Source: a virus (Duplodnaviria; Heunggongvirae; Uroviricota; Caudoviricetes). Taken from it: 33,125 nucleotides of DNA. The stretch lies in the IMG/VR virus record IMGVR_UViG_2718218402_000003; one strand, written 5' to 3'. A program made the translations under genes and the position numbers. Below the pieces are notes generated by a model. The model saw nothing but the letters and a program-made list of their open reading frames with translations. It made no database searches and had not been told where the DNA came from. Positions 5,151 through 28,330 of this stretch are shown here, piece by piece. Within the stretch, counting starts at the first letter, position 1. The number at the start of each line of letters is the position of its first letter.

Positions 5151-5357
5151 CTTCATTTTCACTTTCTTAAATCTAACGACAGATGGCTAACATTTAAGTA
5201 TTGTGAAATATTATCAAATGTAATCATCATTGATTTACAAAAGATACATTTTGCCCCGAAAGGATTTCTGTCAGAAACATCAAAAGATGATGTTCTATAC
5301 TGAGAACCATGGCAACACGGGCATCTAAAGTGAATATGGTTTGTAATATTTTCTACC

Positions 5358-5570
5358 TCAAAGTGCCACTACATGAACAGCTGCAGGGCCTTTAGGTCCG
5401 TTCTCAATACCAAATTCGACTTCCTGATTCTCAGTTAACGTTTTGAAATCGTTGCTCTGAATAGCTGAGAAATGCACAAACACATCTTTGCTACCATCTT
5501 TCGGCGTGATGAAACCAAAACCTTTTTCAGGGTTAAACCATTTCACTAAACCAGTCATTTTGTTAGACAT
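5358..5570 (-). CDS. cspI: Cold-shock protein, CspA family (Qin prophage CspI-like)
   Basis: 70-aa [21 protein letters not shown]...; RNP1-like KGFGFI motif; long AT-rich 5' leader upstream. Confidence 0.85.
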
Positions 5571-5933
5571 CATTATTACCTTTTGAAGAAGTTAGCCCTT
5601 GGGCAGAATGGTCCGAAAAAAAATATCAGAGAGAAAAACCAACAAGGAAATCTCAAGAGGTACAAATAATAAAATTATAACAATGACTGCTTCAGATAAT
5701 TTTGTAACAAACCAGAACACCATTAACGCATGATTAACCAACCATAGCAAGGATTACTTTTGTAAAGAAAAACACACGAATGAAACAATAGCTTTATTTA
5801 TTAATAAAACGTGTCATTCTGTCTAATGACCTTTTATCTTACCCCTAAGATTTCAAGGATTTTGACTCATGGAAGAGTCCTTTTTATTTAAATTTCACAT
5901 TCAGCGCTAAAAATAATCCGATTTAATATTAAT

Positions 5934-13338: not shown

Positions 13339-13728
13339 TTACCTCCAGAGGCGTTGCTGGAATGTACGGGACGGACGCGGTGGGCGTTCGGAGTAAGGCA
13401 ATCTGACTGAGATTATCCAGTGACGGTAGTCGAGGCTAAGGGCTTTTTTAACCTCGTATCCGCGCCTGCGGTAACACTGAATTATCCATTCAGCCTGCTC
13501 TTCAGTGCATGGTGGATGCTGGAACCAGTCCGATTTGAATGCATGAAAACGCCGTCCGCACCTGCTGGCAAAGACGGCAGAATCATCAGAATTGTGTAAT
13601 TTGGTATCGTGCGCCATCGGTTGTCTCTGCTGGCGCAGCAGGTGCCAGTTGTTCAGGCTGGCGTATAAAGTATAAATAAACTGGTTCCAGTGTAAAGCCC
13701 CTACATTAATGGAATAAAAGTCAAACAA
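13339..13728 (-). CDS. Hypothetical phage protein (Cys/His-containing)
   Basis: 129-aa ORF tightly coupled to ydfU; true start may be the internal Met. Confidence 0.35.
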   Translation of the reverse strand: MFDFYSINVGALHWNQFIYTLYASLNNWHLLRQQRQPMAHDTKLHNSDDSAVFASRCGRRFHAFKSDWFQHPPCTEEQAEWIIQCYRRRGYEVKKALSLDYRHWIISVRLPYSERPPRPSRTFQQRLWR

Positions 13729-13980
13729 CAGATTGTTGGGATAAACACAACGCTTATTATTAAAAGCGATTAGATAAATTAAATTTTAATGTTATGCAAT
13801 TTTACCAGATCACCATAACATCTCGTTTGAAACCACCAAAACAACAACCATATCAATATTGATTATGTTAAAGTGAGTAAATATGGAAAACAACAAATCT
13901 GCACATTACGCTCCTTTTTTATCTGTGATACTTTTTGTTTTATGCTGTGTGTGGGCATTATTTTTATAAAAATATTTACA

Positions 13981-14007
13981 GATAAAATAAACCCGCCGAA
14001 GCGGGTT
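13981..14007 (-). terminator. Hairpin downstream of hokD (terminator / 3' fold-back element)
   Basis: AACCCGC-CGAA-GCGGGTT followed on the minus strand by a T-rich run; a second hairpin GCGAGGGA-tttct-CCCTCGC lies at about 14049-14069. Confidence 0.5.
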
Positions 14008-14075
14008 AAGTGCGGGTGCATTGAGGATGCCTGACACATCAGAGGTGGCGAGGGATTTCTCCCTCGCCTGGTCTC

Positions 14076-14231
14076 TTACTCCTCAGGTTCGTAAGCTGTG
14101 AAGACAGCGACCTCCGTCTGGCCGGTTCGGATTCGTACCTCGCAGAGGTCTTTCCTCGTTACCAGTGCCGTCACTATGACGGTTAAACAGATGACGATCA
14201 GGGCGATTAACATCGCCTTTTGCTGCTTCAT
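14076..14231 (-). CDS. hokD: Hok/Gef-family type I toxin (HokD/RelF-like)
   Basis: 51 aa MKQQKAMLIALIVICLTVIVTALVTRKDLCEVRIRTGQTEVAVFTAYEPEE; AAGGAGAAG Shine-Dalgarno before ATG 14231; the track ORF extends upstream in frame. Confidence 0.85.
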   Translation of the reverse strand: MKQQKAMLIALIVICLTVIVTALVTRKDLCEVRIRTGQTEVAVFTAYEPEE

Positions 14232-14906
14232 AGCCTGCTTCTCCTTGCCTTTCGGCACGTAAGAGGCTAACCTAGATTTGCCGTTCATAGATTGAGCCTC
14301 AGATTAATGTTAAGCGTCTTGCAGGACGCGTAATGTTAACTGGGGCTTTTCTCTATCTGCCGTTGGTGTTCATGCCTGAGACAGATAGCCTCAAGCACCC
14401 GCAGCCATTCTACTTAACTCCCGTCACCTCGCCAATATGAAATCAGTCAGAAAGGCGATCCATAAGAACAACAGCAAGGCAATAAATTGCCATTACAGCA
14501 GCAATAGCCAGCGCACATTTGAGAACCAGCACCACAACCTCCTGTATTGGACGTACACCAGTCCTGATAAATATGAGGCTGTCTCGTCAGTGATTCAATA
14601 CAACTATTGGGTATAGTTTCTGTGATTTTGTTCTGTAGAAATGGAACACAACAACCAGTCACCACCAGCACTTCTTTAAATACGCCAAGTCCGACGCAAG
14701 CTAACCTTCTAGGCCGCTTTGAGCGAAGAGCGGACGCTCGCATCTGTCCCAACACACTGAGGGCTTCACGAACACCTAGGTGTACTCGTCAACTGGGAAA
14801 AAGTCAGATTATCTGTAAGCGTACAGCCTGAACCGTCTGGTCAGAATCTGACGAATTAGACAAAGTGGTGTCCACCAAATAAGTAGTGGGAACCAAAGTA
14901 TCAGAT

Positions 14907-15287
14907 ATGCAGAAAAATGTGACTCCCGGCAGGCGAAAAGGCTGCCCTAATTATCCTCCCGAATTTAAACAGCAGCTCGTTGCTGCCTCCTGTGAACCCG
15001 GGATATCCATCTCAAAACTTGCTCTTGAAAATGGCATTAACGCCAATCTGTTGTTCAAATGGCGACAACAATGGCGCGAGGGAAAGCTGCTATTACCTTC
15101 TTCAGAGAGCCCCCAGCTACTTCCTGTGACTCTCGATGCAGCTGCCGAACAGCCAGAATCGCTCGCAGAGGACCCGGAAACCCTCAGTATCAGCTGTGAG
15201 GTAACGTTCCGGCACGGGACGCTCCGCTTCAATGGCAATGTCAGCGAAAAGCTCCTGACTCTGCTGATACAGGAACTGAAGCGATGA
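14907..15287 (+). CDS. IS66-family TnpA (orf1)
   Basis: ATG at 14907 (MQKNVTPGRRKG...); the track start at 14886 is a GTG. Confidence 0.8.
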   Translation: MQKNVTPGRRKGCPNYPPEFKQQLVAASCEPGISISKLALENGINANLLFKWRQQWREGKLLLPSSESPQLLPVTLDAAAEQPESLAEDPETLSISCEVTFRHGTLRFNGNVSEKLLTLLIQELKR

Positions 15288-15631
15288 TCCCGTTACCTTC
15301 CGGGACCAAAATTTGGCTGGTTGCCGGTATCACCGATATGAGAAATGGCTTCAACGGCCTGGCTGCGAAAGTACAAACGGCGCTGAAAGACGATCCCATG
15401 TCCGGCCATGTTTTCATTTTCCGGGGCCGCAGCGGCAGTCAGGTTAAACTGCTGTGGTCCACCGGTGACGGACTGTGCCTCCTGACCAAACGGCTGGAGC
15501 GTGGGCGCTTCGCCTGGCCGTCAGCCCGTGATGGCAAAGTGTTCCTTACGCAGGCGCAGCTGGCGATGCTGCTGGAAGGTATCGACTGGCGACAGCCTAA
15601 GCGGCTGCTGACCTCCCTGACCATGCTGTAA
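15284..15631 (+). CDS. IS66-family TnpB (orf2)
   Basis: 115 aa, overlapping tnpA stop; characteristic IS66 orf2. Confidence 0.85.
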
Positions 15632-15680
15632 ATCTCTTTATCCTGGTTGTCACAGAATAAGCCCGGTAAAATACGGGCTT

Positions 15681-17219
15681 ATGAACGACATCTCTTCTGA
15701 CGACATCTTCCTGCTGAAACAGCGCCTGGCCGAACAGGAAGCGCTGATCCACGCCCTGCAGGAAAAGCTGAGCAACCGGGAGCGCGAAATAGACCATCTG
15801 CAGGCGCAGCTGGATAAACTCCGCCGGATGAACTTCGGCAGTCGTTCCGAAAAAGTCTCCCGCCGTATCGCACAAATGGAAGCCGATCTGAACCGGCTTC
15901 AGAAAGAGAGCGATACGCTGACTGGTAGGGTGTATGACCCGGCAGTACAGCGTCCGTTGCGTCAGACCCGCACCCGTAAGCCGTTCCCTGAATCACTACC
16001 CCGTGACGAAAAGCGACTGTTGCCTGCGGCGCCGTGCTGCCCGAACTGCGGCGGTTCACTGAGCTATCTGGGCGAGGATACCGCCGAACAGCTGGAGTTG
16101 ATGCGTAGCGCCTTCCGGGTTATCCGGACGGTACGGGAAAAACATGCCTGTACTCAGTGCGATGCCATCGTGCAGGCACCTGCACCTTCGCGGCCCATCG
16201 AGCGGAGTATCGCCGGACCGGGGCTGCTGGCCCGCGTGCTGACCTCGAAGTATGCAGAGCACACCCCGCTGTATCGCCAGTCAGAAATATACGGCCGGCA
16301 AGGTGTGGAGCTGAGGCGTTCACTGCTGTCGGGCTGGGTGGATGCATGCTGCCGGCTGCTGTCTCCGCTGGAAGAGGCGCTTCATGGCTATGTCATGACT
16401 GACGGCAAACTCCATGCCGATGATACCCCGGTCCAGGTACTGCTGCCGGGTAATAAGAAGACGAAGACCGGGCGGTTGTGGGCGTATGTTCGTGATGACC
16501 GCAATGCAGGGTCAGCGTTGGCACCTGCAGTGTGGTTCGCTTACAGCCCGGACAGAAAAGGCATCCATCCGCAGACTCATCTTGCCTGCTTCAGCGGTGT
16601 GCTGCAAGCGGATGCGTACGCCGGGTTCAACGAGCTGTATCGCAATGGTGGGATAACGGAAGCTGCCTGCTGGGCTCATGCCCGCCGAAAGATCCACGAT
16701 GTGCACGTCCGCATCCCGTCAGCACTGACGGAAGAAGCCCTGGAGCAGATCGGTCAGTTGTACGCCATAGAGGCGGATATAAGGGGAATGCCGGCAGAGC
16801 AGCGGCTTGCTGAACGTCAGCGAAAAACGAAACCGTTGTTGAAATCCCTGGAAAGCTGGTTGCGTGAAAAGATGAAGACCCTGTCGCGACACTCAGAGTT
16901 GGCGAAGGCGTTCGCGTACGCACTTAACCAGTGGCCGGCACTGACGTACTATGCGAACGATGGCTGGGTGGAAATCGACAACAACATCGCTGAAAATGCC
17001 CTGCGGGCGGTCAGTCTGGGTCGTAAAAACTTCCTGTTCTTCGGCTCTGACCATGGTGGTGAGCGGGGAGCGCTACTGTACAGCCTGATCGGGACGTGCA
17101 AACTGAATGACGTGGATCCAGAAAGCTACCTTCGCCATGTGCTTGGCGTCATAGCAGACTGGCCGGTCAACCGGGTCAGCGAACTGCTTCCGTGGCGCAT
17201 AGCACTGCCAGCTGAATAA
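15681..17219 (+). CDS. IS66-family transposase TnpC
   Basis: 512 aa with N-terminal leucine zipper, CxxC...CxxC zinc finger and DDE region. Confidence 0.9.
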
Positions 17220-17280
17220 CACATCCCCGTCAATACGGCCCTCGCTGTACGCTTACGATTATCTGCGTAAGTTTCAGCGT

Positions 17281-17308
17281 AAAAATTGGGCACTATAAAA
17301 GTGCCCAA
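17281..17308 (-). terminator. Rho-independent terminator of the large NTPase gene
   Basis: TTGGGCAC-tataaaa-GTGCCCAA hairpin followed on the minus strand by TTTTT; 22 nt downstream of the stop at 17330. Confidence 0.55.
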
Positions 17309-17329
17309 ACTGTAGAAAAATACATAATG

Positions 17330-20300
17330 CTATGTATCTGAGCCAAACATAGAGCGCCGCCTTGTTATTTTATAATAAGTGGGATTTTCATTATCCACCT
17401 CAAAATCAGAGAAGAAGTGGTTATCTCTTAATGCTGTTAATAAACTTTGATTAGTTGAATCAACTTCAATTTTAGGTTTGCCTCGCCCCAAAATTTTACT
17501 GAACTCCGATAAACCAAGCAGATCAAGATACTCTTTGCAAGTCGTCTTACTCAAATCCTTACCCGGCAACAAAGCGATTAGCAGTGCTATTTTATTCTGC
17601 ATATTCAGTCCCTCTGCGACAAACAGGTTTTTTAGTAACGGTTCAGAAACATCATTAGGACTTGCTATCAATGCTGATATATCCTGTATTGCTCGACTCA
17701 AGATGAGCGACTGAGTAGAGGTTCCCCAAGTTTTATAAGATGACGTCAAGATTAGAAGTTCATCTGGTTTAAAATTATTTTCTAAAATATAGTCATTAAC
17801 GACCTGAGAGTAATTCTTACTATAAATAGCCAACGGAGTTTTAACAAACTCGAGTAGCTTAACTTTCAAATCATCATCAACTTTCCAAGAAAGTATTGAT
17901 ATAGCCTCATCCAAAATAAAGTTATCAATCGTCATTAATTCAACGTATGCCCTGATATTCTTATGAATATAATAGGAAAGTTGCTCTGAATAGTTATCTC
18001 GTATGAAATTAAGTGGCGCAACATTCATACGAATAATATTTTTATCCACTAATATTTTGAACTTATCACTCGCGATATTACTAGCGCTAAAGGATGTTTT
18101 ACAAATAATATTTAGTGAGCAAATTAATTTTTCATATTTATCATTTGATAAATCATTACAGATAACAATCGATTTAAATAATTTACCTTTAAGCTCGTTA
18201 TCAATATTAATATTTTGAAAATTCAGGTCTACATCAGTTCTATTGATAAATTCGATAAGTGAGTCATCCAGTCCATCAACATGTTCAAAATAAGAGACAA
18301 TATTTTCCTCAGAGCACACTGCTCTATCTTTATCCAACAAAGATGACCATAAAGATTCGCTCTCAACCTCACTCAGAGATGTCACGAAAGTTTGCAAAGC
18401 GTTTATATACTGGCCTTTTTGTTCATCAGATATTCCCTCATTATTAAGAACGGATAAAACAATGGATTCATCATCCACGATTGAACCATCACAACTAGAT
18501 AAAACCATATCCAGATAGTCCCTAATATGGTTATTAACATAACTAGCCAAGGGAGAATCAGGTTGTGACATCACTAGTGTATAGTTCTTATGGCGAATAT
18601 CATCTTCACTATTAAGCGTGTAAACCTTACTCAGCATTAAGGTCAGGTTGGAAAAATTAATATCATAAAGTGAATGCTGGTAAACCGCATCAAAGAGTAC
18701 TTTATTTGCGTTTTCAAATTTAATACTGACAAAAGAAACGTTAAGCAACTTAAAACCACTAATTAATTTGTCAACCTTCGGTTCTGATATTGCTAAATAA
18801 CCTGCCGAATCAGAGATGTAATCAGTCAGACAATCATCAATATTAATGGCCTCGATGGCGTCATTGGCAGAATAATAAAACGTGCCTATAGAGTAGAGTT
18901 TAACCCAATCAGCAGAAAATTCACTCTCTGTCAGCGCATAAGAAAAAAACTCAGGCCACTGTGTATTTAATCGATTAATGAAGACAGGCTGAGCCCTCTC
19001 AGTTTCAAAGTAACCACGAATAAACTCAACTCTTCTATCTTTTCTTAGTTGTTTGAATAAACGTTTTATTAAGTTTACCTGGGCTGGCGTTTGAAGCAGA
19101 TAAGCTAATAAATCAAAATTAAGCGCCTCTTCCTGTTCAAAATCCACTTCTCGAAGGCGGGCAACGACCAGCTTGGGGTTCTTGAGTTGATAAGTGAACT
19201 CTTTGCCTTTTTGATCGGTAATGCTGCGTAAAAACATCTTATCAATTCGACTCAGGCTATTTTCATAAAAATAGGTCATATAGTCGGTATAGGTTTCATC
19301 AATATAACCATCACGAATAAGGTATTTAAGCAAGTCAAAATACTCACTGCTTTTTATTTCATTAAAGTCTCTTTCCTCTCCAATTTCATTGGTATAGGTG
19401 AGTTTAAATATTTCATCAATGTTTTCTCTAGTTATTACTTCTTTAAGTCTTTTGTTTCTAGAATCAACCAAACTTTCTCTTGATCTTGATATAAGCTCAT
19501 TAATTTCTTCTATTTTACCATTAAATTTATTTTCAACACTTTCTTTTCTAGCCGCCCTTCTCTTTGCTATATCAGCTTTCTCAGCCTGATTATAGTGAGG
19601 ATGATTATTATATCTAGATAATTCCTTATCGTATATAGCATCAACCTCCTGACTAGAGTTGAGTATTTCATCATTGATTGCCTCAATCTCTTTTTTTCTA
19701 TCTCTAATATCTTTTTCTATTTTCTTTATTTCTTCAATAATAAGGTTGTCTTTTTCACTAAATATGGTATAAACCATACCTTGATTAAGTTGCAACTCAC
19801 TAAAATCTCTTGGGAAAATATTCTTATAGGCAATAATGGCCAACATTTTATTACAGTCAAGTTCTGTCGTGTTTAATTTGTTATAATAAATTTGAAATTC
19901 GTTATAAATATTCTTCAATATTCTCATATCATCAATATATAAAGACATCCCTTGTAGAAATCTTTCATTGAACAACTTGAGAATACCACCACCATCAAAA
20001 TGTGTGATAAACTGATCGTAAGAGTTAGAACTATCAACAACAGGAATAACTGGAATGATATAATCAAAGAATTTGGTTCTATCCTTCGAAATGAAGATAT
20101 CATCACGAAGCAAGTAAATAAAACGTAACGTCGATTTCTTGTGCCCTGCTGTGTCCCGTTGAATATTAACCAGTCTGTTAACCTCATGAAGACGTTCAAA
20201 GATGTTATTACTATTAAAACGGTCCATGTCTTCAAAAACAATGGCATCAGCATCAACGTTCTCGAAAAGGTACAATACTTCATTTAAATATCTATCGAAA

Positions 20301-20962
20301 TAAGACTCGTTACTTTCTTCAAAAATCTCTATTTCATTACCCTGTAAATTTATTTTCTTAAGAACATTACGATTCTTTTGGGTTTTTATTAACTTGTAAA
20401 TGAAAATACAAGATAGGATAGTACATATAAACCCACTAATTAAAAGCGTATCGTATTTAGTTGATAATGTAAGTAGTGTCTTTATATTACCTTCAGATAA
20501 AAGTGAAACAAACTTTTCCCACTTATTAAATAGCGTGATATGTAGTATCATAGCGATAAATAACACCGTAAAGATGGTGTTTATCACAATGTTGTTAGTT
20601 TTTATTTTTTTCTTTACTTTAAAATGTGTCTGGGGAATATCATCAGCATTAATTTGGTGAATTAACTGGTTAAGAACTTTACCTTCTAACGCGGTTTCAT
20701 TTATATCTTTACTTGGTTCATTAGTTTCAGCTTCCTCAATCGATCTGAAATGAGCAAGTGAGATATGAACAAACTTTATATTTGAATGACTTTTCTTATA
20801 GGATTCGATAAGACTACTTTTTCCTGCGCTATATTGCCCTGATATCGCAACATTTTTTAGATCGTTATTGGCAAAAACAAAATCTATCGCATTTTTATAT
20901 ACACCCAGCTCAACATCGCTGAACGGCGTTAACTTTTGAAATTTATAGCTATCATCACTCAT
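17330..20962 (-). CDS. Large (1210 aa) membrane-inserted P-loop NTPase, KAP/YobI-like; candidate stand-alone phage-defence or abortive-infection protein
   Basis: Walker A GQYSAGKS (aa 42-49, nt about 20816-20839), two predicted TM helices (aa about 125-145 and 172-192) between Walker A and Walker B IVFEDMD (aa 241-247); coiled-coil-like segment aa about 400-500; about 950 aa of unassigned C-terminal sequence; strongly AT-rich by eye; SD GGAAGGGA upstream; own terminator. CDS is certain, function is inferred. Confidence 0.6.
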   Translation of the reverse strand: MSDDSYKFQKLTPFSDVELGVYKNAIDFVFANNDLKNVAISGQYSAGKSSLIESYKKSHSNIKFVHISLAHFRSIEEAETNEPSKDINETALEGKVLNQLIHQINADDIPQTHFKVKKKIKTNNIVINTIFTVLFIAMILHITLFNKWEKFVSLLSEGNIKTLLTLSTKYDTLLISGFICTILSCIFIYKLIKTQKNRNVLKKINLQGNEIEIFEESNESYFDRYLNEVLYLFENVDADAIVFEDMDRFNSNNIFERLHEVNRLVNIQRDTAGHKKSTLRFIYLLRDDIFISKDRTKFFDYIIPVIPVVDSSNSYDQFITHFDGGGILKLFNERFLQGMSLYIDDMRILKNIYNEFQIYYNKLNTTELDCNKMLAIIAYKNIFPRDFSELQLNQGMVYTIFSEKDNLIIEEIKKIEKDIRDRKKEIEAINDEILNSSQEVDAIYDKELSRYNNHPHYNQAEKADIAKRRAARKESVENKFNGKIEEINELISRSRESLVDSRNKRLKEVITRENIDEIFKLTYTNEIGEERDFNEIKSSEYFDLLKYLIRDGYIDETYTDYMTYFYENSLSRIDKMFLRSITDQKGKEFTYQLKNPKLVVARLREVDFEQEEALNFDLLAYLLQTPAQVNLIKRLFKQLRKDRRVEFIRGYFETERAQPVFINRLNTQWPEFFSYALTESEFSADWVKLYSIGTFYYSANDAIEAINIDDCLTDYISDSAGYLAISEPKVDKLISGFKLLNVSFVSIKFENANKVLFDAVYQHSLYDINFSNLTLMLSKVYTLNSEDDIRHKNYTLVMSQPDSPLASYVNNHIRDYLDMVLSSCDGSIVDDESIVLSVLNNEGISDEQKGQYINALQTFVTSLSEVESESLWSSLLDKDRAVCSEENIVSYFEHVDGLDDSLIEFINRTDVDLNFQNINIDNELKGKLFKSIVICNDLSNDKYEKLICSLNIICKTSFSASNIASDKFKILVDKNIIRMNVAPLNFIRDNYSEQLSYYIHKNIRAYVELMTIDNFILDEAISILSWKVDDDLKVKLLEFVKTPLAIYSKNYSQVVNDYILENNFKPDELLILTSSYKTWGTSTQSLILSRAIQDISALIASPNDVSEPLLKNLFVAEGLNMQNKIALLIALLPGKDLSKTTCKEYLDLLGLSEFSKILGRGKPKIEVDSTNQSLLTALRDNHFFSDFEVDNENPTYYKITRRRSMFGSDT

Positions 20963-21361
20963 TGATATCCCTTCCCAATCTTCACCGAGAGAGCTGGCTT
21001 TCGGAGTTAATCAAACAAAATCATGCAGATAAAATTTCGCCTTATTATAGCAGACACAACTGCAAAGATTAGCTAAAGCCTCGTTGTTTTCTTCATCTAT
21101 CCCTATAATTTTACACTACAGTTAGCACTTACTATACCTGAAAGCTTTGCTCGTAAAGAGCACAATCGCAAGTCAGCAAAGCACGACTTTGCAATCGAGC
21201 GCCGCTAAAACAGTGCTGAATCGCTACGACTTAGGCAGCCATCTTATCGGTTGGCAGATAATTTCTAACTTCCGCTTCTGGCACAAAGCGGACAACCACG
21301 ATAGCTCTATCCTGTGCCACAAAATGTCAATTCACATCTTAACTAATGCATTTTAATCTCG

Positions 21362-25061: not shown

Positions 25062-25124
25062 TTTCTGGTGACGTTTGGCGGTATCAGTTTTACTCCGTGA
25101 CTGCTCTGCCGCCCTTTTTAAAGT
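25062..25124 (+). ncRNA. dicF: DicF small regulatory RNA (ftsZ-targeting) with intrinsic terminator
   Basis: TTTCTGGTGACGTTTGGCGGTATCAGTTTTACTCCGTGACTGCTCTGCCGCCC followed by TTTTT; matches DicF as recalled; between ydfC and dicB. Confidence 0.8.
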
Positions 25125-27116: not shown

Positions 27117-27443
27117 ATGACTAAAAATACACGTTTTTCCCCCGAGGTCCGTCAACGGGCAGTTCGTATGGTTCTGGAAAGTCAGGGCGAATATGACTCA
27201 CAATGGGCGGCAATTTGTTCCATTGCCCCAAAGATTGGCTGTACGCCAGAGACTCTGCGAGTGTGGGTTCGTCAGCATGAACGGGATACCAGGAGTGGTG
27301 ATAGTGGACTCACCACCGCTGAACGTCAGCGTCTGAAAGAGCTGGAACGTGAAAATCGTGAACTGCGCCGCAGTAACGATATCCTTCGCCAGGCTTCCGC
27401 TTATTTTGCGAAGGCGGAGTTCGACCGCCTCTGGAAAAAATAA
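27117..27443 (+). CDS. IS629-like OrfA
   Basis: 108 aa [22 protein letters not shown]... Confidence 0.85.
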
Positions 27444-28330
27444 TGCCACTGCTGGATAAGCTGCGTGAGCAGTACGGGGTCGGACCGGTATGCAGTGAAC
27501 TGCATATTGCCCCGTCAACGTATTACCACTGTCAGCAACAGCGACATCATCCTGATAAACGTAGTGCCCGTGCGCAGCGCGATGACTGGCTGAAGAGAGA
27601 GATACAGCGCGTATACGATGAAAATCATCAGGTGTACGGTGTGCGTAAAGTCTGGCGCCAGTTGTTACGCGAAGGTATCAGGGTGGCCAGATGTACAGTG
27701 GCGCGCCTCATGGCGGTTATGGGACTTGCCGGTGTTCTCCGGGGTAAAAAGGTCCGTACTACCGTCAGCCGGAAAGCCGTTTCCGCAGGCGACCGCGTAA
27801 ACCGTCAGTTCGTGGCAGAACGTCCTGACCAGCTGTGGGTGGCTGATTTTACTTACGTCAGCACATGGCAGGGCTTCGTCTATGTGGCGTTCATCATTGA
27901 TGTGTTTGCCGGATGCATCGTGGGGTGGCGAGTCTCATCGTCTATGGAAACGACATTCGTGCTGGATGCACTGGAGCAGGCGTTGTGGGCCCGTCGGCCG
28001 TCCGGCACAGTCCATCACAGTGATAAAGGTTCTCAGTATGTATCACTGGCCTATACGGAGCGACTAAAAGAAGCAAAACTGCTGGCATCAACAGGGAGTA
28101 CAGGTGACTCGTATGACAACGCGATGGCGGAGAGCATCAATGGTCTTTACAAAGCGGAGGTAATACACCGTAAGAGCTGGAAAAACCGTGCAGAAGTGGA
28201 ACTGGCCACACTCACGTGGGTGGACTGGTATAACAATCGACGATTGCTGGGAAGGCTGGGTCATATCCCTCCGGCAGAAGCAGAAAAAGCTTATTATGCT
28301 TCCATCAGAAACGATGATCTGGCAGCCTGA
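27443..28330 (+). CDS. IS629-like OrfB transposase (DDE)
   Basis: 295 aa in the -1 frame relative to orfA (TAATG overlap). Confidence 0.9.
   Translation: MPLLDKLREQYGVGPVCSELHIAPSTYYHCQQQRHHPDKRSARAQRDDWLKREIQRVYDENHQVYGVRKVWRQLLREGIRVARCTVARLMAVMGLAGVLRGKKVRTTVSRKAVSAGDRVNRQFVAERPDQLWVADFTYVSTWQGFVYVAFIIDVFAGCIVGWRVSSSMETTFVLDALEQALWARRPSGTVHHSDKGSQYVSLAYTERLKEAKLLASTGSTGDSYDNAMAESINGLYKAEVIHRKSWKNRAEVELATLTWVDWYNNRRLLGRLGHIPPAEAEKAYYASIRNDDLAA

Follow-up and report, generated by a model that had tools for sequence, protein, structure and literature searches.

The closest described systems to the locus studied here are the hok/mok/Sok (parB) locus of plasmid R1 and related IncF plasmids, and two chromosomal hok loci of Escherichia coli K-12. 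In the R1-type locus the elements are ordered promoter, tac, ucb, mok Shine-Dalgarno sequence and ATG, dcb, hok Shine-Dalgarno sequence and ATG, 3′ hairpin, fbi and terminator, and the Sok promoter lies inside the mok 5′ region. The hok mRNA of R1 is known to switch from a closed to an open form, and it is translation of the leader that matters rather than the Mok product, with mok being translated up to the hok start (PMC9841398). The closest annotated chromosomal relative of the present locus is hokC/mokC/sokC of K-12, where mokC is in frame with hokC and uses the same stop codon, and the locus is followed by IS186. The second K-12 locus is relB-relE-hokD (relF) of the Qin prophage, where relBE is reported to have integrated into an ancestral, longer hokD (PMC6379469). 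The hok loci of K-12 are described as disrupted (PMC5630033). According to Pedersen and Gerdes (1999), as cited in a preprint (bioRxiv 10.1101/2025.08.07.668861), the chromosomal hok loci tested earlier gave no post-segregational killing.

We have analyzed a hokD gene and its surroundings in a stretch of viral DNA of 33,125 nucleotides (hereafter the window). Aligned with the R1-type locus, it has its elements in the same order and at the same positions, the Sok promoter included; the one locus is carried by a prophage and the other by a plasmid. Our preferred reading, to which we assign a probability of roughly 0.88, is that positions 13983-14435 contain a complete hokD-type hok/mok/Sok type I module, borne by a Qin-like lambdoid prophage in its nin/Q region. 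None of the R1-type elements is missing: the promoter, tac and ucb, the start of mok, dcb, fbi and the terminator are all present, as judged from sequence and modeled folds. The analysis shows the sequence elements, the predicted alternative folds, the covariation and the homology, while expression, processing, killing and biological role are inferred from the R1 model.

The hokD gene and the predicted folding of its mRNA

The toxin gene was taken from the list of open reading frames (ORFs) at 14076-14231 on the minus strand. It encodes a protein of 51 amino acids that is 100% identical to K-12 HokD and matches the Pfam family HOK_GEF (PF01848) with 82.9 bits, against a cut-off of 22. Identical loci in RefSeq carry a hokD annotation for the same coding sequence. 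The protein is of the HokD subtype, whereas R1 Hok has 52 amino acids and belongs to a different subtype; HokC of K-12 is about 82% identical to HokD. A Shine-Dalgarno sequence AAGGAG can be read at 14241-14246 (minus strand), 9 nt before the ATG. The codon for Tyr47 (14093-14091, minus strand) lies within a UACG motif at 14088-14094; in the UACG context, A-to-I editing by TadA reportedly changes Tyr to Cys in hokC, hokD and hokE (PMC5630033).

An earlier reading of this DNA from the letters alone, the sequence-only reading, had pointed to a hokD-like gene with a strong Shine-Dalgarno sequence and to two hairpins in its 3′ region, and both hairpins were found. One, GGCGAGGGA-TTTC-TCCCTCGCC at 14047-14068 (minus strand), lies just after the stop codon and forms in the folds of both the full-length and the 3′-truncated RNA. 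In an alignment of 33 loci its helices (15-16) show compensatory changes and are paired in 97-98%, and the hairpin would be expected to form the 3′ end of the hok mRNA once this is processed. The other is an intrinsic terminator, identified in a terminator scan at 13990-14007 (minus strand), with the sequence AACCCGC-TTCG-GCGGGTT and a T-run; its stem has seven pairs, five of them GC, and is followed by TATTTTAT.

The sequence-only reading had also proposed a scan with Rfam models. This detected RF01794 on the minus strand, which is the strand of hok; positions 14226-14400 match the model over its whole length (1-157 of 157) with a score of 107 bits (E=1e-23), against a gathering score of 59. 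In a low-threshold scan of 13700-14900 every match besides RF01794 fell far under its gathering score, and those to rsmX (23.5 against 56), Phe_leader, ceN48 and Fungi_SRP were set aside as noise. RF01794 is named 'sok antitoxin', yet it has the sense of hok both in the window (14226-14400) and in locus L065 (502-654). At K-12 hokC it matches the hokC strand (118 bits), with sokC annotated on the opposite strand. Since the window match lies on the hok strand, the model ends at the hok AUG and the orientation at K-12 hokC is the same, we conclude that RF01794 describes the leader of the hok mRNA, with Sok antisense to sequence inside it. Automated pipelines that take RF01794 for Sok on the hok strand would therefore place Sok on the wrong strand.

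The full-length hok (mok-hok) mRNA is predicted to be about 418 nt long (13983-14400, minus strand). The 5′ end was set from the start of the RF01794 match and a promoter 7 nt upstream, and the 3′ end from the terminator. The promoter, which is sigma-70-like and was called by a consensus scan with 9 of 12 matches, lies at 14407-14435 (minus strand), with a −35 sequence TTGGCG (14435-14430), a spacer of 17 nt and a −10 sequence TAGAAT (14412-14407); it is kept in the divergent homologues L057 and L059-L062.

Folding was computed on the window sequence itself. The RNA of 418 nt from 14400 to 13983 gave −169 kcal/mol with z=−8.5, and both this fold and the match to RF01794 (E=1e-23) exceed what is expected by chance. 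In the minimum-energy structure the translational activator element tac, GGGUGCUUGAGG (14389-14400, minus strand) at the 5′ end of the mRNA, pairs over about 375 nt with the fold-back inhibitory element fbi, CCUCAAUGCACCC (14014-14026, minus strand), while AGCCCCAG of ucb pairs with the mok Shine-Dalgarno region. The ucb-like box identified from the folds is AAGCCCCAG at 14340-14348 (minus strand). The mok Shine-Dalgarno region, placed by folds and alignment, is CUGAGGCUC at 14294-14302 (minus strand), and its GAGGC is unchanged in the aligned R1-type locus. The 3′-truncated RNA lacking fbi gave −142.1 kcal/mol (z=−6.05), and here tac pairs with ucb, and the mok Shine-Dalgarno sequence with a dcb-like box, GUUAGCCUC, at 14263-14271 (minus strand). 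The alternative pairings, closed (ucb with mok Shine-Dalgarno) and open (tac with ucb, mok Shine-Dalgarno with dcb), are a prediction only. The predicted switch between full-length and truncated folds is the closed-to-open one known for R1 (PMC9841398), and both loci match RF01794.

Covariation was examined in an alignment of 33 hok loci from Escherichia, Shigella, Kluyvera, Citrobacter, Pantoea and Photorhabdus. The tac:fbi helix has double-sided changes in 5 of its 12 pairs, for example from U-A to C-G, and 89.6% of the cells are paired. Slid controls gave 40-45% paired for the whole structure, in which most pairs of the coding part vary little. The fold-back elements that had been anticipated from the letters are seen in the modeled minimum-energy fold, and their tac:fbi pairing covaries across the 33 loci.

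The mok reading frame and the predicted Sok RNA

The mok reading frame has 70 codons in the ORF list (14076-14288, minus strand). Its ATG at 14288 follows a GAGG, stands 57 nt before that of hok in the same frame, and aligns with the mok ATG of an IncFII locus (L064). The Hok of this R1-type locus is identical to that of R1. The two start codons of L064 are likewise 57 nt apart and in frame; published R1 coordinates give 58 nt (PMC9841398). An ATG is found 56-58 nt upstream of hok in most of 39 loci, and among close relatives its position is kept with a spacing of 56, 57 or 58 nt. In view of this, and of the stop codon common to mokC and hokC of K-12 as to the two frames of the window, a mok in frame with hok is ordinary. 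It fits the published role of leader translation rather than of the Mok product.

Hok genes were expected by the sequence-only reading to be accompanied by a sok-like antisense RNA, which it placed on the plus strand around 14232-14400. Plus-strand alignment to K-12 (sokC at 16952-17010) and to the R1-type locus supports this, placing a predicted Sok RNA of about 77 nt at 14280-14356. The start and end of the annotated K-12 sokC both transfer to the window, the predicted end falling near 14356 in GGGGCUUUUCUCUAU. The putative promoter at 14245-14273 (plus strand), in a position homologous to the Sok promoters of K-12 sokC and of the R1-type locus, has a −35 sequence TTGCCT (14245-14250), a spacer of 17 nt and a −10 sequence TAACCT (14268-14273), and these hexamers are kept in 32 of the 33 loci. 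The RNA would be antisense to nucleotides 45-121 of the hok mRNA, covering the mok Shine-Dalgarno sequence and AUG. In the computed fold (−33 kcal/mol, z=−5.8) the 5′ tail, which covers the mok start, is single-stranded and is followed by a long hairpin and a U-rich tail; the hairpin is conserved in 11 hokD-type loci, and the 5′ tail varies.

A plus-strand promoter prediction had also been proposed, and the lack of a promoter and terminator pair had been named as an outcome that would speak against the antisense RNA. A generic consensus scan of the plus strand called no promoter and terminator pair for Sok, the predicted promoter scoring 7/12, under the threshold. Two controls, the annotated sokC of K-12 and the Sok promoter of the R1-type locus, were not called by the same scan either, and the negative result consequently carries no weight. 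An antisense Sok RNA encoded in cis over the mok start, with a promoter and a terminator of its own, is predicted by homology. We found no bacterial usage of the name 'sokD' in a literature search.

The Sok hairpin of the window contains an extra GC-rich segment of about 18 nt in comparison with R1, and SokC of K-12, at 59 nt, is without this insertion. More generally, the hairpin of hokD-type leaders and Sok RNAs is extended at its tip by about 18 GC-rich nucleotides, GCGUC-UUGCAG-GACGC (window 14300-14342; columns 102-119 of alignment A1), that are missing from hokC-type, Photorhabdus and R1-type loci.

The region upstream of hok and the prophage setting

The sequence-only reading took 14300-14814 as the site where relBE lies in K-12, remarked that it contains no RelB- or RelE-like ORF, and regarded about 500 bp upstream of hok as degenerate. 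The absence of such an ORF is confirmed for the whole window, where tblastn with the K-12 RelB and RelE proteins gave best E-values of 6.9 and 3.0, elsewhere than in this region. That reading had left room for an intact relBE recognizable at the nucleotide level; word-7 blastn of K-12 relBE DNA against the window gave chance matches only, and no relBE had been missed. The region is not degenerate. It holds the full hok leader, the hok promoter and a conserved ORF of 29 amino acids that the sequence-only reading had not noted.

Homology to K-12 is limited to 13989-14245, with 98.4% identity, and takes in hokD, its 3′ UTR and 14 nt upstream of the ATG. The Hok proteins are identical, and the flanking DUF968/ydfU and Q genes are common to both loci. 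Unlike the window, K-12 Qin hokD is without leader, mok, Sok and hok promoter, while the window is without relBE. In K-12 relE takes the place of the hok leader, ending 71 nt upstream of hokD, and the K-12 hokD has no match to RF01794. From the limited homology and the lack of an RF01794 match, K-12 is the derived, leader-less state.

The distribution among genomes was determined for 5426 complete E. coli genomes, with the leader and promoter (14232-14440) counted as present at a coverage of at least 80%. They are found in 4274 genomes (about 79%), and the K-12 relE-hokD junction in 1173. Sequence identical to the window and free of relBE occurs in many genomes; strains ST2350 and ETEC4088, for example, carry this locus with 100% identity. 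Four phage records have the module as well, among them mEp460_ev081 and HannyBb. On this sequence comparison the relBE-hokD arrangement of K-12 is derived, relBE having replaced the leader, and the window represents the common ancestral state. The absence of relBE from the window is not a loss, and relBE was never at 14300-14814. The expectations of the sequence-only reading are thus partly supported: its observations on the hokD-like gene, Shine-Dalgarno sequence, hairpins and lack of relBE were all correct, and it was right to expect Sok and fold-back elements, but wrong to take the relBE of K-12 as the expected neighbor.

The conserved ORF encodes a hydrophobic peptide of 29 amino acids, MLVLKCALAIAAVMAIYCLAVVLMDRLSD, at 14443-14532 (minus strand), and has a strong Shine-Dalgarno sequence, CAGGAGGT. 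Its stop codon is 7 nt before the −35 sequence of the hok promoter, with no terminator between them, and a possible promoter of its own, TTGAAT-17-CATATT, lies about 30 nt upstream of the Shine-Dalgarno sequence. The frame is open, with the Shine-Dalgarno sequence kept, in seven divergent copies (72-97% protein identity), two of which start with ATG. Pairwise pN/pS values are 0.15-0.67 and the variable sites are distributed 12/3/17 by codon position, a pattern suggestive of purifying selection. The ORF appears to travel with the hok module, as the homology shared by divergent loci starts about 45 nt upstream of it. The ORF has no RefSeq annotation in the loci inspected, and is called a hypothetical or membrane protein in a few sources. 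The peptide has no match in NCBIfam, PHROGs or PADLOC. A HMMER search of 1.84 billion representatives returned only 10 close relatives and no distant family, and a resemblance to the Hok transmembrane segment (E 0.06-0.9) was judged compositional. In the E. coli O121 plasmid pINV (L057, 1111-1396) the 29-amino acid ORF, the hok promoter and approximately the first 50 nt of the leader lie between icsP and ospZ on the invasion plasmid, as the remnant of a truncated module.

A low-complexity, Cys-rich frame had been noted in the same region from the letters alone. The corresponding mechanical ORF of 102 amino acids does exist in the ORF list (14447-14755, minus strand). Homologous loci are no longer similar upstream of about 14575, and the frame is interrupted by stops in the closest divergent copy. 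We reject it as a gene, since it is unconserved and overlaps the conserved 29-amino acid ORF out of frame.

The region is bounded by an IS66-family insertion of 2442 bp (14815-17256, plus strand), identified by matches to the Pfam families TnpB_IS66 and DDE_Tnp_IS66 and encoding TnpA, TnpB and a DDE transposase. It is flanked by an 8-bp target duplication, GATTATCT, at 14807-14814 and 17257-17264. The element interrupts intergenic DNA, and strain ST2350 (L001) has the site without the insertion. The Qin-like prophage of the window carries several IS insertions. Within it, the hok locus is located between the DUF968/Q/lysis genes and the DUF977/YdaT/DicA-like early region.

The segment from the hok module to the DUF977/early region (14600-21300 in the window) varies by strain among the loci compared (L001, L002, L003, L059 and L060). 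Upstream of the module K-12 has relBE, ETEC4088 a zeta-toxin gene, 2A QueH and 19A14 a DUF2326 protein, and the window has a YobI-like NTPase of 1210 amino acids that matches the PADLOC Tmn model. In this respect the segment resembles a hot spot for cargo or defence genes in Qin-like prophages. The YobI-like protein is a P-loop NTPase encoded at 17330-20962 (minus strand), with scores of 411 bits for PF20693 and 224 bits for the 'Tmn' defence model. The gene is intact in the window, and the ST2350 DNA, 99.8% identical, is annotated as three separate hypothetical proteins. Elsewhere in the window are the DicF sRNA (25063-25114, plus strand; 76.7 bits), a cspA-type thermoregulator leader that precedes a prophage cold-shock gene (5312-5728, minus strand; 110 bits) and an ALIL frameshift pseudoknot in an IS3-family element (27398-27514, plus strand; 120.9 bits).

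Proposed function of the module and alternative explanations

On the R1 model, the hok promoter would give rise to an mRNA of about 418 nt in which tac is paired with fbi and ucb lies over the mok ribosome-binding site, and by virtue of these pairings the full-length mRNA is proposed to be translationally silent. Slow trimming from the 3′ end would remove fbi, so that tac could pair with ucb and the mok Shine-Dalgarno sequence with dcb, creating a form that may be translated and may be bound by Sok. Translation of mok, in frame with hok, would open the hok start and lead to synthesis of the 51-amino acid membrane toxin. The unstable Sok RNA (plus strand, about 14280-14356) would pair over the mok start, leading to decay of the mRNA. 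The biological role of such a module may be prophage retention or phage exclusion.

The module might look intact and nevertheless be an inert passenger, transcribed in its host and never killing or stabilizing, as has been described for other chromosomal hok loci. We consider this rather unlikely. In K-12, IS elements or relBE disrupt the copies, whereas the copy in the window has every element, and the leader is maintained in the E. coli majority noted above and in phage genomes. Moreover, the HokD coding sequence is toxic on expression according to the literature, and the compensatory changes in the long-range tac:fbi pairing argue for selection. A decayed relBE at 14300-14814 can be discounted almost entirely. 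Positional analogy with K-12 is all that speaks for such a remnant, and against it stand the empty protein- and nucleotide-level searches, the occupation of the region by leader, promoter and conserved small ORF, and the many genomes with identical relBE-free sequence.

It would also be conceivable that the real toxin is the product of the whole 70-codon ORF (14288-14076), a long 'ancestral HokD', with no 51-amino acid Hok and separate mok. The upstream ATG is in frame in the window and in many relatives, the ancestral hokD ORF has been given as about 70 codons (PMC6379469), and a 213-nt ORF of phage HannyBb is annotated as a MokW-like host killing protein. We regard this as improbable, more so than an inert module. 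The ATG position is kept in close relatives, yet the spacing of 56, 57 or 58 nt means that the 19-codon extension is often out of frame. The extension diverges freely, while Hok, its AAGGAG sequence and its ATG are conserved, and with the PHROG and Pfam models the match is confined to residues 20-69. In R1, moreover, only the translation of mok to the hok start matters (PMC9841398). We therefore retain the reading of the locus as a complete hok/mok/Sok module encoding a 51-amino acid Hok.

Such a module is already known; it is a textbook system and very common, and the present locus does not change the understanding of how hok/Sok acts. The sole mildly new item is the 29-amino acid ORF. That it encodes a real small membrane protein traveling with the hokD module, and possibly acting with it, is a speculative suggestion that we think is probably wrong. 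If it were true, the product could serve as a modulator or as another small toxin. Transcription reading through from the promoter of the ORF could instead give hok transcripts extended at the 5′ end, with a behavior unlike that of the canonical mRNA. As a mostly unannotated frame it offers a modest lead for work on small proteins. For hokD, K-12 is a poor reference. At loci such as that of the window RefSeq annotates only the hokD coding sequence, with 'none' for leader, mok and Sok, while most E. coli have a complete hok/mok/Sok module.
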